This document shows positions 4,156-59,858 of a stretch of DNA of 64,000 nt, piece by piece; the stretch's first letter is position 1; each line of letters starts with the position of its first letter. The notes under the pieces are model-generated. The model saw only the letters and a list, made by a program, of their open reading frames with translations, ran no database searches and was not told the origin of the DNA. The position numbers and the translations under genes were made by a program. This DNA comes from an uncultured candidatus Porisulfidus sp. (lineage in GTDB: Bacteria > Pseudomonadota > Gammaproteobacteria > Poriferisulfidales > Oxydemutatoraceae), in NCBI GenBank assembly GCA_965215125.1, contig OZ244052.1, positions 1,376,001 through 1,440,000 on the forward strand. Reading direction: 5' to 3'.

Positions 4156-4361
4156 GGGACTATTGAAATAGTATCCACGAACCGTAGGGGCGGACTTCAT
4201 GAAATTGCCGATTGACCTACTGGTTCAATCGGCGGTTCTGTTCTGCCCGTAACGCGTTGCGCCGGCACGATTTATACATTCATTCATCCAATTTATGGAA
4301 ACCAAAACCAAATGGCGCAAGCGGTTGCAGTTGTGCAAAAACAATACTTTTTCAACAGTCC
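4156..4361. mobile_element. MITE-like module D containing a GTAG-REP with a B hairpin in its loop
   Basis: Inverted ends GGGACTATTGAAATAG / CTTTTTCAACAGTCC; direct repeat TGTCGT at 4150-4155 and 4362-4367. Confidence 0.75.
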
Positions 4362-31411: not shown

Positions 31412-31700
31412 CGGGCTGTTGAAAAAGTGCAGACATCGCACAAATCCAACCGCTGTGCGCCACATAATTGTCCAAACCACCTGTAGGGGCAGGATAAAGC
31501 CGCCGATTGAGCCGGTAGGTCAATCGGCAATTTTGATGTCTGCCCTTAAATACCGTCCAGAACAACCGTAACCGCTTACGCCATTTGGTTTTGGTTTCCA
31601 TAAATTGAATGAATGAATGTATAAATCGTGCCGGCCAACGCGTTACGGGCGGACATGCAAGTCCGCCCCTACGGTTCATGGATACTTTTTCAACAGCCCC
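31412..31700. mobile_element. MITE-like module D with an inverted GTAG-REP doublet and a B hairpin
   Basis: 16-bp TIR GGGCTGTTGAAAAAGT / ACTTTTTCAACAGCCC; TSD AGCGT at 31407-31411 and 31701-31705. Confidence 0.82.
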
Positions 31701-47324: not shown

Positions 47325-47645
47325 ACATTCCCCTCCTGTGGAGGGGTGGCAGGCTTTGCCTGACGGGGTGGTTACCGGGGGCTGTTGAAAAAGTATTTCA
47401 TACAATGTAGGGGCGGACTTGCATCCGCCCGTAACGCGTTACATCTGCACGATTTATACATTCATTCACTCGATTTATGGAAACCAAAACCATACGGCGC
47501 AAGCGGTTGGTGTCGTGCAGAACGGTACTTAAGGGCAGACACACAGGTCTGCCCCTACGGCTTGGTGGTTATTATAAATTCACGGCGCAAAGCGATTGGG
47601 TTCTTGCAAAACAGGACTTTTTCAACAGCCCCGCCGTGTCTGCAC
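47325..47645. mobile_element. Module A unit plus MITE-like module D (47379-47631) holding an inverted GTAG-REP doublet
   Basis: Perfect 16-bp TIR; REPs at 47407-47430 and 47533-47558; TSD only imperfect. Confidence 0.78.
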
Positions 47646-51443: not shown

Positions 51444-52592
51444 ATGACTAGTATACTGTATGTTGGCATTGAAGTTGATGATAATCGTTTCACTGCCACA
51501 GCCATTTCTAAACACAATAATTATCATTCCATTAAAACTCGCCCGGACTTTGCATCATTGCATAAGGCAATCACCAAAATCGCTTTGCCGTATGAACAGA
51601 TTAGGGTCTGTTATGAAGCAAGCTATTTAGGCTTTTCGTTAAAGCGACAATTTGATGCGGTGGGCATTCACTGCGATGTGATTGCGCCGTCGCTGATCCC
51701 GGTGCGCCCCTCGGATCGCATCAAGACTGATCGGCTAGATAGCGTTAAGCTGGCTGAATACTACCGACAAGGTATGTTGAAAATCGTCCACGATATTGAT
51801 ACTGAGAGCGAAGGTCACCGACAACTCATTCGTGGACGCCAACAAGTGGTCAACACCTGCAAGATCTATAAACTGCAGATTTTGTCGTCGTGCCGTTATC
51901 GCGGGATTAGTTATCGCACCAGTATGCGGGCTAAGAGCTATTGGACGAAGCAACACATGGCATTCTTAAAGCGGTTGCTAGTCGACGACAGTTTAGATAA
52001 GTATTTCCGCCTCGATTTAGAGAACAAGCTGTATCTATTGGAGACGCAACAAGGGGTTATCAGACGCTATGAGAACGATATACATCAGTTAGCGATATCC
52101 GAGCCGTATCGTCGGGCGGTCGGCTATTTATGTTGTATCAGAGGCATTGCCGAGTTGATTGCCATGACGCTGATTGTTGAGATTGGCGACATCGGTCGGT
52201 TTGTCAAGGCGCGTCATCTGGCCGGTTATGCCGGTTTCAGTATCAGTGAGTATAGTTCCGGTGGCAAGAGTCGCAAAGGGGGTATTACCGGGATGGGCAA
52301 CAAATACATCCGCACGGTGTGCGTGGAAGCCTGCCAGTTGGCGGGTAGACGCTATAGCGTGAATAAGGCATTGCGTGCCCGACGCACCGACCAAGACCTA
52401 GTGGCTATAGAGATAGGCGACCGTTGCATGAAGCGTTTGTATAAGAAGTATCAGACGATGTATCATGCCAACAAACCATTCAACAAGATTAAGGTGGCGT
52501 GTGCCAGAGAACTACTCGGTTTTGTGTGGGAAGCCTTGCGTGCTGCCCAGGCCGCTGAAAACGCATTGCACGCCGCACCGGTGGTTGAGTAA
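51444..52592 (+). CDS. IS110-family recombinase/transposase
   Basis: CYEAS, IKTDRLDS, EYSSG, GITGMGN, KVACARELL; first motif reads GIEV. Confidence 0.9.
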   Translation: MTSILYVGIEVDDNRFTATAISKHNNYHSIKTRPDFASLHKAITKIALPYEQIRVCYEASYLGFSLKRQFDAVGIHCDVIAPSLIPVRPSDRIKTDRLDSVKLAEYYRQGMLKIVHDIDTESEGHRQLIRGRQQVVNTCKIYKLQILSSCRYRGISYRTSMRAKSYWTKQHMAFLKRLLVDDSLDKYFRLDLENKLYLLETQQGVIRRYENDIHQLAISEPYRRAVGYLCCIRGIAELIAMTLIVEIGDIGRFVKARHLAGYAGFSISEYSSGGKSRKGGITGMGNKYIRTVCVEACQLAGRRYSVNKALRARRTDQDLVAIEIGDRCMKRLYKKYQTMYHANKPFNKIKVACARELLGFVWEALRAAQAAENALHAAPVVE

Positions 52593-52749: not shown

Positions 52750-53625
52750 TTAGGACGCAGATACGCAACAATAATTCAGGTCAAACGGTTTCTTGTGCTT
52801 GAGTATTCCGTAAATGATACGCGTCAGTTTATGGGCGCAAGCAACAATAACCTGCTTTTTGGTTAAATCCGGACGCGCCGGCTTAACTGGTCGGCAAACG
52901 CACGGATGATTGGGTTATGAACCCGTGCCGAGAGTGCCGCCATAAATAGGGCGGTGCGCAGGTGTGCATCGCCAATTTTAGAGATGTGCGCCTTCGCCTC
53001 GTAGTTGCCGGACTGCTTGAGCATCGGGGTGATGCCGATATAGGCGGCAAGTTGCTTTGGGTGCTGAAACGTATTATCATCAAAAGCTGCACATAGGGTG
53101 GCTGCGGTTTGAGTTCCGATTCCAGTAATGGAGCAGAGCAACTGGTGATGCTGTGTGAGTTGTTCGTCTTCAGCGATGATTTCGTAAAGTAAGGCGTCAC
53201 ACTCATGGATTTGCTGCTGGAGGTGTTCCAGTTCCGCAGCTGCCTTCTTTTTGAGTTGCATACTGCGCAGCGTTTTTGCACAGTTGCTTAACTGCGTATG
53301 GGACTTGGTTAATTGGCGACGCCATTTCAGTGTATCTCTCAAGGCGAATACCGCTTCGGTCGGCTTTTCCCAGTCTTGAATATCACCGACTGCAAATGCG
53401 AAGCGTGCGATGAGTTGCGCATCAACGCCATCGGTTTTATTGCGCATACCCAGCGTTTTGCGGTAGCTTGCGACCTGTACAGGTGGCGCAATCGTGATGG
53501 GATGTTGGTCATAGCTTTCCATGCATAGGTCTAGCTCAAAACCGCCGGTTGCCTCAACGCAGAGGCGACACTGTTGCGCACCATGCTCGGTAGCCCAAGA
53601 TAACAGCTGTTTAATGCCTTGTCCG
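52750..53625 (-). pseudogene. Second IS110-family transposase, N-terminally deleted and frameshifted
   Basis: VEATG, NKTDGVDA, QSG, ISKIG; C-terminus KKQVIVACAHKL..IYGILK in another frame near 52880. Confidence 0.85.
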
Positions 53626-53905
53626 TCCTGCAGCGTGTCTCCTCCGACTTCCTAGGCACTGCATCTACCTAAGCGTTTATCTTATATCAAATAAGCCGGG
53701 GTTTAATATATCTGTCTGCCCTTAAGTATCGTCCTGCACAGTCGTAACCGCTTGCGCCGTATGGTTTTGGTTTCCATAAATTAACTGATGTACGATTTTA
53801 TTTGTGCAAACGCAGCGCGTTTGAGTTCTGCATAATGTCACGCCGATTGACCTACTGGTTCAATCGGCGGCTCCATCTTGCCCCTACAGGCATCAATCAG
53901 CAATA

Positions 53906-54856
53906 CTACTCGGTGGTTCCGTTCTTTAGCTGTTTAATCTCGTCAGCAGATAAACCCGTGACTTCGGAAATCAACGAAACCTTCAGGCCTTTTTGCAACA
54001 TATTCAAAGCAATTTCGTGATCTCTTTTTACTTTACCTTCAGCCAACCCTTCAGCCTTGACTTCTTCCATGATCTCTTGCTTTCTCACATGGCGTTCCCA
54101 CTCTTGTCTTTCTAACAATATAGCGTTCCAATACTCCCTATTCTCTTTTGATACTTTCTCTAAATGTTTTAATGCCATCTTCGTCTCTCCATCTTGCGAT
54201 AAATGCTTTACTTGCTCAGCCGTCAATTCCGCCGAGTGCTTGATAATATAGCACCACCTATCCGTCATATCAACCAACTCAAAGTGGCTTTTATTGAACT
54301 TGTTCAATTCCACTATCACCAACCCAAAATCCTTAGTCAATTCCTTATGCCGATGCTTACGCAGAGTGATTGTGGTCTCGTTTATATAGTCCTCTTCATC
54401 AAACACCGTGAACCGGGTAAACACCAGTAAGTAGCTCGGATCAATCTGATCAAACTTTTGCCCACGCTTCATACCATAAGAGTGCAACTGCACCCAATAA
54501 GCCAACATTCTACTAAAGAGGTCCTTTTGAGAATAGCCTTGCATCTCTATGTCGATATTCTCACCGCTATTTAATTTGACATGGAGGTCTAGCACTACTT
54601 GTTTGCCACCCGGTGTGTTCGGTGGGATAGAGCTATCCTGCAGATGTAGCTTATCGCCCGATTGGCTTTGTTGATTTGCGGTTTTGGATACAAGGTTGAA
54701 TATGCCGGGATTGAATGTCATCATATCCGGCGCATTATCGGGGGTCGGCAGGAAGCTCTTAATCAACGAGGACAATACTTGCTTATTGCTTGAGAAGTAT
54801 CGCTTAAAGGAAATATCTTTTGTCAAGTCTAAGTATCCGAGATGTTTTTCATCCAT
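53906..54856 (-). CDS. Rpn family (PD-(D/E)XK nuclease/putative transposase), copy 1
   Basis: DISFKRYF, LDL, IDIEMQ, ELNKF, IALNML..I..VTGLS..EI. Confidence 0.88.
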   Translation of the reverse strand: MDEKHLGYLDLTKDISFKRYFSSNKQVLSSLIKSFLPTPDNAPDMMTFNPGIFNLVSKTANQQSQSGDKLHLQDSSIPPNTPGGKQVVLDLHVKLNSGENIDIEMQGYSQKDLFSRMLAYWVQLHSYGMKRGQKFDQIDPSYLLVFTRFTVFDEEDYINETTITLRKHRHKELTKDFGLVIVELNKFNKSHFELVDMTDRWCYIIKHSAELTAEQVKHLSQDGETKMALKHLEKVSKENREYWNAILLERQEWERHVRKQEIMEEVKAEGLAEGKVKRDHEIALNMLQKGLKVSLISEVTGLSADEIKQLKNGTTE

Positions 54857-55262
54857 AGTAAATCTTCTATAAATTGGGTGTAAAACATCTACCCTAAACT
54901 CGGTATTGAGTAGGGTGGGAAAAAAATGGATGAATGGTAGTAAATACAGGTTGAACGGTATATTAGAGGGTGATATTTCCTTGCGAAGGAGAGGAATATC
55001 CACCCTAAAGGTGCCTTAAGAATACTTTTTCAACAGCCCACGAAGTGTCTGCACTGATCAATTCCCCTCCTGTGGAGAGGTGGTCGCAAAAGTGTTTGCA
55101 CGATTATAGTGTTGGTCCATTCCTCTCCTTCGGAGGGGTGGCCTATGCATTTTGCAATGTATGCGTTTAGCAATCATGTTCAGGTTCTGCATAATGTCAC
55201 GCCGATTGACCTACTGGATCAATCGGCGGTTCTGTTCAGCCTGACGGGGTGGTCGCCGAAGT

Positions 55263-56494
55263 GGGACTGTTGAAAATAGAAAGGTCGATTGACTTACTGG
55301 TTCAATCGGCGGCTCCATCCTGCCCCTACAGGCATCAATCAGCAATACTACTCGGTGGTTCCGTTCTTTAGCTGTTTAATCTCGTCAGCAGATAAACCCG
55401 TGACTTCGGAAATCAACGAAACCTTCAGGCCTTTTTGTAACATGTTCAAAGCAATTTCGTGATCTCTTTTTACTTTACCTTCAGCCAACCCTTCAGCCAA
55501 CCCTTCTGCCTTGACTTCTTCCATGATCTCTTGCTTTCTCACATGGCGTTCCCACTCTCGTCTCTCTATGGATATAGCGTTCCAGGCATCTATATCCTCT
55601 TTTGATATTTCCTCTAAATGTTTTAATGCCATCTTCGTCTCTCCGTCTTGTGATAAATGCTTTACTTGCTCAGCCGTCAATTCCGCCGAGTGCTTGATAA
55701 TATAGCACCACCTATCCGTCATATCAACTAACTCAAGGTGGCTCTTGTTGAACTTGTTCAATTCCACTATCACCAACCCAAAATCCTTAGTCAATTCCTT
55801 ATGCCGATGCTTACGCAGAGTGATTGTGGTCTCGTTTATATAGTCCTCTTCATCAAACACCATGAACCGAGTAAACACCAGTAAGTAGCTCGGATTAATC
55901 TGACTAAACTTTTGTCCACGCTTCATACCATAAGAGTGCAACTGCACCCAATAAGCCAACATTCTACTAAAGAAGTCTTTTTGTGAATAGCCTTGCATCT
56001 CTATGTCGATATTCTCACCACTATGTAACTTGACATGGAGGTCTAGCACAACCTGTTTGCCACCCGGTGTGTTCGGTGGGATAGAACTATCCTGCAGATG
56101 TAGCATATCGCCCGATTGGTTTTGTTGATTTGCGGTTTCGGATGCAGGGTTGAGTATGCCGGGGTTGAGTATCATCATATCCGGCGCATTATCGGGGGTC
56201 GGCAGAAAGCTCTTAATCAATGAGAACAGTACCTGCTTATTGATCGAGAAGTATCGCTTAAAGGAAATATTTTTTGTCAAGTCTAAGTATCCGAGATGTT
56301 TTTCATTCATAGTAAATCTCCTATAAATTGGGTGTAAAACATCTACCCTAAACCCGGTATTGAGTAGGAGGAGAGACAAATGGATGAACGGTAGTAAATA
56401 CAGGTTGAACGGTATATTAGAAGGTGATATTCCCTCGCGAAGGGGGGGAATATCCACCCTAAAGGTGTCTTGAGAATACTTTTTCAACAGCCCA
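55263..56494. mobile_element. Module-D element carrying Rpn copy 2
   Basis: Ends GGGACTGTTGAAAA / TTTTCAACAGCCCA; direct repeat CGAAGT at 55257-55262 and 56495-56500. Confidence 0.72.
55348..56310 (-). CDS. Rpn family protein, copy 2
   Basis: Close paralog of copy 1; SD AGGAG before MNEKHL. Confidence 0.88.
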   Translation of the reverse strand: MNEKHLGYLDLTKNISFKRYFSINKQVLFSLIKSFLPTPDNAPDMMILNPGILNPASETANQQNQSGDMLHLQDSSIPPNTPGGKQVVLDLHVKLHSGENIDIEMQGYSQKDFFSRMLAYWVQLHSYGMKRGQKFSQINPSYLLVFTRFMVFDEEDYINETTITLRKHRHKELTKDFGLVIVELNKFNKSHLELVDMTDRWCYIIKHSAELTAEQVKHLSQDGETKMALKHLEEISKEDIDAWNAISIERREWERHVRKQEIMEEVKAEGLAEGLAEGKVKRDHEIALNMLQKGLKVSLISEVTGLSADEIKQLKNGTTE

Positions 56495-56660
56495 CGAAGT
56501 GTCTGCACTGATCAATTCCCCTCCTTCGGAGGGGTGGCCTATGCATTTTGCAATGCATGCGTTTAGCAGTCATGTTGAGATTCTGAACAAAGTCACGCCG
56601 ATTGACCTACTGGTTCAATCGGCGGCTCCATCCTGCCCCTACAGGCATCAATCAGCAATA

Positions 56661-57635
56661 CTACTCGGTGATTCCGTTCTTTAGCTCTTTAATCTCGTCA
56701 GCAGATAAACCTGTCAATTTTGAAATCTCAGAAACCTCATAATTCTCTTGCAACATATTCAAAGCAATTTCGTGATCTCTTTTTACTTTACCTTCAGCCA
56801 ACCCTTCAGCCAACCCTTCAGCCAACCCTTCTGCCTTGACTTCTTCCATGATCTCTTGCTTTCTCACATGGCGTTCCCACTCTCGTCTCTCTATGGATAT
56901 AGCGTTCCAGCAATCTATATCCTCTTTTGATATCTCCTCTAAATGTTTTAATGCCATCTTCGTCTCTCCGTCTTGTGATAAATGCTTTACTTGCTCAGCC
57001 GTCAATTCCGCCGAGTGCTTGATAATATAGCACCACCTATCCGTCATATCAACCAACTCAAGGTGGCTCTTGTTGAACTTGTTCAATTCTACTATCACCA
57101 ATCCAAAATCCTTAGTCAATTCTTTATGCCGATGCTTACGCAGAGTGATTGTGGTCTCGTTTATATAGTCCTCTTCATCAAACACCATGAACCGAGTAAA
57201 CACCAGTAAGTAGCTCGGATTAATCTGACTAAACTTTTGCCCACGCTTCATACCATAAGAGTGCAACTGCACCCAATAAGCCAACATTCTACTAAAGAAG
57301 TCCTTTTGAGAATAGCCTTGCATCTCTATGTCGATATTCTCACCGCTATTTAATTTGACATGGAGGTCTAGCACAACCTGTTTGCCACCCGGTGTGTTCG
57401 GTGGGATAGAACTATCCTGCAGATGTAGCATATCGCCCGATTGGTTTTGTTGATTTGCGGTTTCGGATGCAGGGTTGAATATGCCGGGGTTGAGTATCAT
57501 CATATCCGGCGCATTATCGGGGGTCGGCAGAAAGCTCTTAATCAATGAGAACAGTACCTGCTTATTGATCGAGAAGTATCGCTTAAAGGAAATATCTTTT
57601 GTCAAGTCTAAGTATCCGAGATGTTTTTCATTCAT
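56661..57635 (-). CDS. Rpn family protein, copy 3
   Basis: Close paralog with a distinct C-terminal tail. Confidence 0.88.
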   Translation of the reverse strand: MNEKHLGYLDLTKDISFKRYFSINKQVLFSLIKSFLPTPDNAPDMMILNPGIFNPASETANQQNQSGDMLHLQDSSIPPNTPGGKQVVLDLHVKLNSGENIDIEMQGYSQKDFFSRMLAYWVQLHSYGMKRGQKFSQINPSYLLVFTRFMVFDEEDYINETTITLRKHRHKELTKDFGLVIVELNKFNKSHLELVDMTDRWCYIIKHSAELTAEQVKHLSQDGETKMALKHLEEISKEDIDCWNAISIERREWERHVRKQEIMEEVKAEGLAEGLAEGLAEGKVKRDHEIALNMLQENYEVSEISKLTGLSADEIKELKNGITE

Positions 57636-58049
57636 AGTCAATCTCCTATAAATTGGGTGTAAAACATCTACCCTAAACCCGGTATTGAGTAGGGGGAGAG
57701 ACAAATGGATGAACGGTAGTAAATACATGTTGAACGGTATATTAGAAGGTGATATTCCCTCGCGAAGGAGGGGAATATCCACCCTAAAGGTGTCTTGAGA
57801 ATACTTTTTCAACAGCCCCCGAAGTGTCTGCACTGATCAATTCCCCTCCTTCGGAGGGGTGGCCTATGCATTTTGCAATGCATGCGTTTAGCAGTCATGT
57901 TGAGGTTCTGAACAAAGTCACGCCGATTGACTTACTGGCTCAATCGGCGGCTCTATTCAGCCTGACGGAGTGGTTGTTGCGTGGGACTGTTGAAAAAACA
58001 TCCACGAATCGTAGGGACAGGTACATTCCCCTCCTGTGGAGGGGTGGCA

Positions 58050-59858
58050 CCCTAATTCCGCAATAGACCACCTGCAAAAGTCCGTAATCTCTTATGTTGC
58101 AACACTCTCATGCATATTCCCAATTCACCCATTAGGTGAAACATAATTATTACTAATTTTTTACATAAAACTCTGTACAACGCCTTATTTTTTTGTTACT
58201 ATTTACCAATTAATAACTTCGGAGGTATTATGTCAAAACAAAAAAATCAGCACAATCAATCATCGTATACGCTAGCTACCACCCACCAGAAATTGACCTC
58301 TCGTTGTGGTTTGTTGGCATTGATTAAAGTGCTCAAAGCACTACAACTTAAGCCACAAGCAGACACTGTGTTTGCGGCACCGGGTAGCAATCGTGGCTAC
58401 CGCAATGGCGACATTCTAACGAGCTTCATCTTGATGCTCAACGAGGGTGCGAGATGCCTTGAGGATGTCTGCCATTTACACACCGAAAGGGTGTTGCTTA
58501 AGCTGGGAGGTATTAACAAGATACCGGGAGCAGACACTTTGGCGAGGTGGTTGAAACGCCATGGTCAAGCCGGTGCCGGTTTAGTTCACCAGCTCAATCG
58601 CACGGTGATTGCCAAGACCCTGAAGTTGTGGAAAGTAAAGCATGTGACTTTGGATATTGATGCGACTACTATTTTGACCGAGAAAGTCGGTGCTAAATGG
58701 ACGCGTTTTAAGGAGCGTGGTTTCATGCTAATGGTCGGCACGCTAGCTGAAGTGGGTCAAGTCATCGCCGTTGAGTTGCGCCACGGCAATGTCTCCCCGA
58801 ACTTTGATAATATCGGTTTCATCAAGACCTGCCAAGCACAGTTGCCGAGTGGCGTAATACTCAAGCGGGTGCGTATCGACTCGGCAGGGTATCAACAAGC
58901 AATCATTGAATATCTAGTAGCTCAAGGAATAGAGTTTGTTATTCGTGCGCCGATGTACCCGTCAATAGCGCAAGCGATTGCTGGTCTGTCGGAAGCAGAC
59001 TGGCGACCATTGCGATTAAGCGACGGCAGTTTATCACCCCACGACTATGTGGCTCGCTGCACTTATCAGATGTATCGCAGCAACCTCGTATTTACGCTAG
59101 TCATTCAACGCCGCCTCAAGAGCGAAGCCGCCCGACAGTCTAACCAACCGGAGTTGTCGGGACTGTCTGAACAGCTGCGCTATCAACCCGACAAGTATGA
59201 CTATCGTGTGATTGCGACTAACATCAACGGGCTAGACGATGCACAGATTGTACATGAGTATAATCAACGCGGTGAGCATTCCGAAAACCGCATTAAAGAA
59301 CTCAAATCGGATTTTGTTGCCGGTCGTTTGCCGTGTAGTGATTTTGCTGCCAATGCTCTGTATGTTTGTGTGTGTGCTTTAGCCTACAATGTGTTCGCAC
59401 TGATGCGTGCCGGCTTAGCTAAACAGTTTCGTTCCTCTAGAGCCCCGACGCTCAGGGTCCGCCTGTTTGGTTTAGCGGCGAAGATTGTACGACAGGGTCG
59501 GCAATGGAAGCTCAAACTACACGAAGTGCATCGTAGTTTATTGAGTGGAGTTTTCTCAGACCTTGATGAGACTATCGGCAAGCTATTGCCGGATATGCGA
59601 TACCCCTTGCTACATTAACTAGCCACCTTATCTCTTCATTACTCATAAGGCATCAATCAAAGTAGATGCCATGCCCCAGCATACCCTAATACTAGAGATT
59701 AGAGTACTTTGATGCTTCATTTAGCTCTCAATAGGAGTTTATCTCCCGTCACCGAGCAATGATGTGGCATTCAGTTTCGGGTTCAGGCGATTGCCCTGAT
59801 AATTTAGCAGTAAATTATCCATCACATGCAATTTTCATGCTCTATTGAGAAATTAGGG
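58050..59858 (+). mobile_element. IS1380-family element inserted in a module A repeat
   Basis: TIRs CCCTAATTCCGCAATAGA / TCTATTGAGAAATTAGGG; TSD TGGCA. Confidence 0.9.
58230..59618 (+). CDS. IS1380-family transposase
   Basis: TLDIDAT, RIDSAG, YNQRG..ENRIKELK, F.AN. Confidence 0.9.
   Translation: MSKQKNQHNQSSYTLATTHQKLTSRCGLLALIKVLKALQLKPQADTVFAAPGSNRGYRNGDILTSFILMLNEGARCLEDVCHLHTERVLLKLGGINKIPGADTLARWLKRHGQAGAGLVHQLNRTVIAKTLKLWKVKHVTLDIDATTILTEKVGAKWTRFKERGFMLMVGTLAEVGQVIAVELRHGNVSPNFDNIGFIKTCQAQLPSGVILKRVRIDSAGYQQAIIEYLVAQGIEFVIRAPMYPSIAQAIAGLSEADWRPLRLSDGSLSPHDYVARCTYQMYRSNLVFTLVIQRRLKSEAARQSNQPELSGLSEQLRYQPDKYDYRVIATNINGLDDAQIVHEYNQRGEHSENRIKELKSDFVAGRLPCSDFAANALYVCVCALAYNVFALMRAGLAKQFRSSRAPTLRVRLFGLAAKIVRQGRQWKLKLHEVHRSLLSGVFSDLDETIGKLLPDMRYPLLH

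Follow-up and report, generated by a model that had tools for sequence, protein, structure and literature searches.

The rpn element and its flanks

The DNA considered here is a window of 64,000 nucleotides from an uncultured candidatus Porisulfidus sp. (assembly GCA_965215125.1, contig OZ244052.1, positions 1,376,001 to 1,440,000 of the forward strand). Positions 55263-56494 of the window form an element that is bounded by terminal inverted repeats (TIRs) and a short direct repeat, and that encloses a single gene of the Rpn (YhgA-like) nuclease family, rpn copy 2. This element is rather likely to be a non-autonomous cassette derived from an insertion sequence (IS) of the IS1182 family, carrying rpn as a passenger and having moved at least once.

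In window letters, the left end is GGGACTGTTGAAAA (55263-55276) and the right end is TTTTCAACAGCCCA (56481-56494); the two match as inverted repeats at 13 of 14 nt and have the 13-mer GGRCTGTTGAAAA on both arms. A perfect direct repeat, CGAAGT, abuts both ends on the outside (55257-55262 and 56495-56500). The left TIR, on the plus strand, reads G plus GGACTGTTGAAAA, the same motif that is found at the ends of IS1182-family elements and of MITEs (miniature inverted-repeat transposable elements). Behind it, the left subterminal part (55277-55347, plus strand) consists of 9 nt, a hairpin (55285-55309), a CGGCTCCATCCTGCCCCTACAGG module, and 18 nt; the CGGCTCCATCCTGCCCCTACAGG module also occurs inside MITEs, and the final 18 nt are specific to the 3' flank of rpn. 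At the other side of the gene, the rpn upstream region (56311-56480, minus strand) occurs beside rpn paralogs only and includes the motif ATACCGTTCAACCTGTATTTACTACCGTTCATCC. The right TIR that follows lies on the minus strand, TTTTCAACAGCCCA being its plus-strand form.

The conserved repeat end CCTGACGGGGTGGTCGC stands just before the left CGAAGT, and the conserved repeat start GTCTGCAC follows the right one. Beyond the direct repeat, both flanks are conserved repeats themselves (left, GGGGTGGT...; right, ...GTCTGCAC), which makes the site a recurrent target. Excising 55263-56500 would rebuild an exact uninterrupted junction of this mosaic repeat family.

The gene occupies an open reading frame (ORF) at 55348-56508 on the minus strand, with a likely ATG at 56310 that gives a product of 320 aa (55348-56310). 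Copy 2 scores above the curated cut-off of both family models, with 109.5 bits against TIGR01784 (cut-off 52.1) and 92.3 bits against PF12784 (cut-off 27.4), and belongs to the Rpn/YhgA-like PD-(D/E)XK nucleases. A PDB sequence search with the protein gave none but weak matches, to the C-terminal domain (best E 0.0022). Rpn proteins are described as recombination-promoting nucleases with an intragenic antitoxin, RpnS, in the parts of PMC5350276 and PMC10400941 drawn on here. By homology, the copy 2 product would be a toxic PD-(D/E)XK endonuclease with an intragenic antitoxin that acts in phage defense. Within 55263-56494 there is no other ORF longer than 64 aa and no transposase gene. The letters, the ORFs, and the Rpn models together confirm what a sequence-only reading of the window had described: inverted ends, a CGAAGT repeat, and a single Rpn gene as the sole substantial ORF.

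Copy 2 stands between two other rpn genes in a tandem array of three, whose units are spaced 1454 and 1325 bp apart. Copy 1 (R1; 53906-54856, minus strand) has a right end at 55026-55039 and no left end, and copy 3 (R3; 56661-57635, minus strand) has a right end at 57806-57818, its left end likewise missing. The right end, CGAAGT, and GTCTGCAC follow all three copies (55026-55054, 56481-56508, and 57806-57833), and the only features unique to copy 2 within the array are the left end and the left CGAAGT. Between copies 1 and 2, mosaic repeat modules (55040-55256, plus strand) contain an uninterrupted junction, GGTGGTCGCAAAAGTGTTTGCAC, at 55079-55101, the kind of site used by MITE insertions. 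A solo left-type end (57984-57996, plus strand) stands after the array, with the junction TGCGT on its outer side.

The copy 3 unit is 129 bp shorter and is joined at a hairpin. Two copies of the hairpin CCGATTGACCTACTGGTTCAATCGG, one within the flanking repeat and the other immediately internal to the left end, are separated by a stretch equal to the missing length, and at this hairpin copies 2 and 3 meet in a hybrid junction. The simplest reading of the array is unequal crossing-over at the hairpin, by which the gene would have been duplicated and the left end lost in the new copy; such an event would leave copy 3 without a left end and its unit 129 bp shorter.

The three genes also differ in coding sequence. 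Copies 1, 2, and 3 carry one, two, and three AEGL tetrapeptides, respectively, each series followed by AEGK, in the C-terminal (RpnS) domain. The repeat corresponds to a 12-nt unit, GCCAACCCTTCA on the plus strand, at 54030-54060, 55480-55515, and 56790-56835 (minus-strand codons). An in-frame ATG (MEEVKAEGL...) precedes the AEGL repeats and is a candidate internal start for RpnS. In the last 30 C-terminal residues, copies 1 and 2 form one group, and copy 3 and the paralog at genome position 1215791 form another; the N-terminal part groups the same rpn copies differently (55351-56310 versus 53909-54856, 56664-57635, and L003 492-1439). This mosaic grouping indicates gene conversion among the paralogs, as judged from the sequences. 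The motifs ATACCGTTCAACCTGTATTTACTACCGTTCATCC and the related ACCGTTTATCGGATATTTACTACYGTTCATCC lie about 60-110 nt upstream of the start in all 12 rpn paralogs of this genome (e.g., 56385-56420 in the window, minus strand), and the motif is kept even in paralogs that are 42-55% identical; it is possibly a shared promoter or operator.

The end family, its targets, and its owner

The 13-mer occurs ten times in the window (at most one mismatch), compared with a mean of 0.26 and a maximum of 2 in 100 shuffles, and 131 times in the 2.22-Mb genome. Three short MITEs in the window have the same ends and are present as the sequence-only reading had described them. The first is 206 bp long (4156-4361), with two mismatches in its left end and the target site duplication (TSD) TGTCGT; the second is 289 bp long (31412-31700), with the TSD AGCGT and a hairpin/CCTACAGG module as in the left end of the rpn cassette; and the third is 253 bp long (47379-47631) and lacks a clean TSD.

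The target duplications are genuine for this end family. When end pairs were defined as consecutive plus and minus ends no more than 2500 bp apart (n = 27), ten had a direct repeat of 5 nt or longer abutting them; in 2000 shuffles of the right flanks, this number averaged 1.0 and never exceeded 5. Four more pairs, with unique-looking flanks, have repeats of 4-5 nt (genome positions 888497, 1568542, 1702686, and 2030176). The duplication starts one base outside the 13-mer on both sides and is 4-6 bp long; its start one base beyond the 13-mer defines the end as N-GGRCTGTTGAAAAAGT, 17 nt in length.

Many insertions share one type of site, a spacer with the end of a repeat module (...CCTGACGGGGTGGT) on one side and the start of the following module (RTCTGCAC...) on the other. 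Uninterrupted junctions of the form GGGTGGT-N6-11-[AGT]T[CT]TGCA[CT] number 53 in the genome versus 0 in the reversed genome, and 30 of the 131 ends lie directly against the GGTGGT side and 39 against the TGCAGA side. The spacers of the uninterrupted junctions are variable (TGTGTCGT, CGCAGAAGT, CGCTAAGGG, and others), and the spacer is the preferred point of MITE insertion. The hairpin occurs 153 times in the genome. A mirror-image reading, which takes the repeat module separating copies 1 and 2 as the insert flanked by CGAAGT, was considered and rejected because uninterrupted GGTGGT...TCTGCAC junctions are common, because no abutted pair of outward-facing ends was seen in this genome, and because MITEs with duplications also occur in unique flanks.

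The ends belong to IS1182-family elements. At genome positions 1176448-1177906, a 1459-bp element has GGGGCTGTTGAAAAAG at both ends and sits in the same type of junction as the target of the rpn cassette. It contains two overlapping ORFs (279 and 193 aa) that match DUF772 (83.5 bits) and DDE_Tnp_1_6 (69.2 bits); a second copy of this IS is a 441-bp fragment (1586962-1587402). Searches of 19 genomes from the family were made for the IS1182-like protein, the end 16-mer, and TIGR01784. Besides this genome, the protein turned up in two congeners, G001 (18 matched segments) and G004 (22 matched segments), which have intact copies with open frames of 519-645 aa. The ORF of one congener copy (L016, 521 aa) scores 388.4 bits against NF033551, the NCBIfam equivalog model for IS1182-family transposases (cut-off 270). 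Of the 11 G001 and G004 loci examined, nine have the 13-mer at each end of the IS; at the remaining two (L015 and L017), only the end on the transposase-start side was found. The same 13-16 nt stand at the ends of the 1459-bp element, of the congener IS copies, and of the rpn cassette, and the ends of the cassette and of the MITEs are identical to IS1182-family ends, N-GGRCTGTTGAAAAAGT.

These results bear directly on what the sequence-only reading had preferred, namely an autonomous Rpn transposon accompanied by its own MITEs. That idea is not upheld, as the ends are those of IS1182-family DDE elements. The observation named beforehand as one that would refute it and make Rpn a passenger, a DDE transposase with the same TIRs, is exactly what the 1459-bp element and the congener IS copies provide. 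The alternative offered at the same time, a MITE-like derivative of an IS5/IS1182-type DDE element with Rpn as cargo, is the one that the evidence supports.

The distribution of rpn genes relative to the ends is in keeping with this. An autonomous Rpn element would be expected to hold its gene between its own ends, and the 12 near-full rpn paralogs of this genome (fragments also occur) depart from that expectation in 11 cases: copy 2 alone has paired ends, three paralogs (R1, R3, and genome 1215791-1216738) have the upstream end only, at the same distance of 171-172 bp, and eight have no gene-facing end at that position. Across four genomes of the genus, the nearest ends on both sides face inward in just three of 41 rpn matches: copy 2, its relative in the sister species G003, and a distant G003 paralog (L045) without a duplication. 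Most gene copies therefore lie outside such end pairs both here and in the genus, and the ends are shared with elements of a different transposase, those of the IS1182 family. At a threshold of at most one mismatch, a further G003 locus (L043) seemed to be a fourth double-ended rpn; an adjacent MITE, seen at up to two mismatches, explains it.

Other rpn loci show related arrangements. A 1335-bp rpn segment at genome positions 1215604-1216938 (L026 3105-4439) carries an IS-type end on just one side. G001 lacks it at the orthologous site, where its flanks are adjacent; the locus exemplifies gain or loss of rpn with one boundary undefined. The string GGGTTGTTAA at 1215604 was tried as a degenerate left end of a second cassette and was rejected as a module variant, since a further module end has the same GGTGGTTAACAA(A)CCC string. 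Tandem arrays of rpn in which MITEs are embedded are found repeatedly in the genus. In G001, eight copies lie at C1:1416532-1428803. A three-copy array in G004 (C2:388100-395400; L052, L006, L011) has a MITE against the upstream motif in at least two copies, rpn itself lying outside those MITEs. Separately, G001 C1:39151-41202 holds ten end 16-mers in one orientation, with eight spacings of exactly 215 bp and one of 316 bp, and is a tandem array of a unit with one end.

Genes other than rpn are also found within such ends. A 2017-bp unit at genome positions 1056851-1058867 (TSD CATCGT) has IS1182-type ends around an IS110-family gene, so that rpn is not the only cargo carried between these ends. 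IS110-family genes lie inside IS1182-type end pairs at genome positions 1056851-1058867, 1998159-1999783, and 297904-300654, once with a 6-bp duplication, which suggests that IS110 elements may target MITEs. In the window, IS110-family (DEDD) transposase genes adjoin the rpn array at 51444-52589 (plus strand) and 52866-53522 (minus strand). A DDE_Tnp_1_4 transposase gene (149 bits) lies at 58230-59615 (plus strand), with a second copy at genome positions 913863-915338; both copies stand directly inside a class-a MITE end (GGGCTGTTGAAAAAGTATCCA...).

Proposed movement of the unit

In the terms used for insertion sequences, the best reading of 55263-56494 is a putative mobile insertion cassette (MIC), that is, an element in which IS ends enclose a passenger gene and a transposase is absent. 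We infer mobilization in trans, movement as one unit, and an order of events. An IS1182-family DDE transposase, supplied in trans, would bind and cut the 17-nt ends (N-GGRCTGTTGAAAAAGT), and rpn would play no part in movement. The cassette itself would have arisen, probably, by recombination at shared hairpin modules that joined MITE ends to rpn flanks. The unit would then have inserted into the junction spacer (GGGGTGGT-YGY-NNNNNN | RTCTGCAC) of another mosaic repeat family, duplicating CGAAGT. After insertion, unequal crossing-over between the hairpin of the flanking repeat and that of the left end would have produced the tandem array.

Support for movement of the whole comes from the sister species G003, where the unit is found again at a different locus. 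This second copy (L010 1527-2753) is 1227 bp long, about 92% identical, and has both ends; its left end has the same unusual form, a TIR followed by nine bases (TAGGAAAGT) and the hairpin. The locus is not orthologous to the window array, and its flanks are adjacent in the present genome, around 955644-955659. The G003 ortholog of the window array holds one rpn gene, with the right end and CGAAG only, and its 3' end has been remodeled at the hairpin.

An empty allele of the copy 2 unit would be a joint of about 55262 to about 56495 (...GGTGGTCGC-CGAAGT-GTCTGCAC...). Logan contigs of four runs (X4-X7, from two studies) were checked over 53500-58300, and none of the 15 joints listed, from contigs that are very short and fragmented in repeats, connects these two positions; the joints listed look like other copies of the same repeats. 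In three of the runs (X4, X5, and X7), 137-nt contigs identical to 55188-55324 span the left junction. Scans of metagenome contigs for the left-end junction and for the right end of the unit found no match, and a scan of genome contigs for the right end found two places only, both in one record.

Several observations weigh against transposition of the cassette as a whole. Some concern the enzyme: an intact cognate transposase is absent in this genome, where the single copy of the gene is split into two overlapping ORFs, and G003 gave neither a DUF772 match nor an IS1182-like protein match in the genome search, despite its 281 end 16-mers, so that any movement there is old or was brought about by another enzyme. 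Others concern the structure of the unit. Its right end has only about 20 nt in common with MITEs when the sequences are compared, so that a plain MITE carrying an insert does not describe the unit. Its left end has the look of a joint made by recombination at the hairpin stem, and gene conversion among the mosaic rpn paralogs could have built the arrangement in place. The G003 unit lacks a TSD, lies inside a 2.27-kb composite, and has an in-frame TAG in its rpn gene, and among rpn units a TSD is found at the copy 2 unit only. The right CGAAGT and GTCTGCAC are common to all three copies of the array and are present in the G003 ortholog, which leaves only the left CGAAGT as diagnostic, and the chance rate of a TSD match of at least 5 nt in shuffled pairs is roughly 1 in 27. 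Finally, 26 of the 41 rpn matches have at least one inward-facing end within 500 bp, and with rpn genes in such end-dense clusters about one double bracketing is expected by chance.

Several of these observations also speak for a rival that is possible but doubtful, namely that the unit never moved whole and that copy 2 was bracketed in place by two separate MITE remnants. A solo right end would long have stood upstream of this rpn subfamily, and, inside the array, recombination or gene conversion would have joined a class-h MITE end to the 3' hairpin of rpn; the match of the two CGAAGT copies would then be a coincidence or a by-product of tandem duplication. In favor of this rival, the right junction is constant in the array and is also found in the G003 ortholog, which lacks the left end. 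The left end consists of a TIR, 9 nt, and the hairpin, whereas the other ends of its class have the opposite hairpin orientation and a different continuation; this suggests a recombinant joint at the hairpin stem. The abundance of the hairpin and the mosaic nature of the rpn paralogs also count in favor of this rival. In addition, a TSD is missing in about half of the short end pairs. Against this account, chance would seldom place a perfect 6-nt repeat exactly at the canonical insertion position, and no other CGAAGT junction is found among the listed flanks of ends and junctions. A complete unit with the same idiosyncratic left end also stands at a non-orthologous G003 site.

A second rival, that Rpn itself, alone or with a partner, mobilizes the unit and the MITEs as a PD-(D/E)XK-encoding transposon, is very improbable. 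It has in its favor that rpn is the sole sizeable ORF of the unit, that the end 16-mer and TIGR01784 were found in the same five of the 19 genomes searched, all of one genus, and that G003 combines its many ends with 17 rpn matches and no IS1182-family gene. The co-occurrence of ends and rpn, like the situation in G003, gives weak support, because MITEs commonly outlive their parent IS. Against it stand the ownership of the ends by IS1182-family elements with a DDE transposase of their own, the 11 paralogs without paired ends, the in-frame stop codon in the rpn gene of the G003 unit, and G002, which has three rpn matches but only two end 16-mers. A dedicated study, in the parts drawn on here, likewise saw no sign of rpn transposition (PMC10400941). 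A variant in which Rpn nucleases act on the ends or hairpin modules and so promote the copying of their own cassettes and of MITEs, the IS1182-type ends being borrowed, is scarcely credible either. We know of no autonomous transposase with the PD-(D/E)XK Rpn fold.

Comparison with known systems

Among known systems, the IS1182-derived cassette is closest to MICs and MITEs. MIC231 of Bacillus is an example of a MIC, and MICs reportedly figure in the qnrS2 and qnrD papers as well. IS ends around a non-transposase gene form a known class, as part of PMC3129680 describes it. The likeness lies in the IS-type ends and TSD around a gene that is not a transposase, and in a cognate IS and short MITEs that have the same ends. 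The differences are several: the passenger here is a defense gene of the rpn toxin/antitoxin type; the match to the IS covers only about 20 nt of each cassette end; the IS copy resident here is split, and the sister species G003 is without the IS; and the insertion of the cassette prefers a junction inside another repeat family.

The TSD length of the IS1182 family (NF033551) is reported to vary. The cassette resembles its members in having the same N-GGRCTGTTGAAAAAGT ends and short, variable direct repeats (4-6 bp here) and differs from them in that it encodes no DDE protein.

With the Rpn family, the array has in common the matches to the family models, the tandem array formed by direct duplication, and the variation of AEGL from one to two to three repeats. 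The sections of PMC10400941 drawn on here report a variable number of four-residue repeats in the C-terminal domain of RpnL/RpnS, rpn arrays that arise by tandem duplication, rpn genes without inverted ends or target duplications, and autonomous rpn transposition as unsupported by evidence. To that extent, the present results agree with that study on tandem duplication and on the lack of autonomous transposition. The difference is that copy 2 has inverted ends and a TSD, the ends being of IS1182 type; with respect to those sections, it adds an exception to the rule that rpn genes lack such features, one that is explained by borrowed IS ends.

The locus thus offers a concrete route by which rpn defense genes may spread, with IS1182-family ends and a TSD around the gene and a second unit in a sister species. 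It also carries a warning, since the only ORF between inverted ends need not be a transposase. The remaining parts (a MITE family, its parent IS, and tandem duplication) are ordinary, and the finding is a modest one.

The setting of the insertion recalls repetitive extragenic palindromic (REP) sequences and bacterial interspersed mosaic elements (BIMEs), in that palindromic modules are densely nested and insertions occupy a set position within a repeat. REP sequences are known targets of IS1397 and of IS110-family elements. In contrast to elements that target REPs and BIMEs, the target here is the spacer between module ends (GGGGTGGT ... RTCTGCAC) rather than the hairpin loop; in the congeners G001 and G004, the same IS lands in the hairpin loop (CATG).

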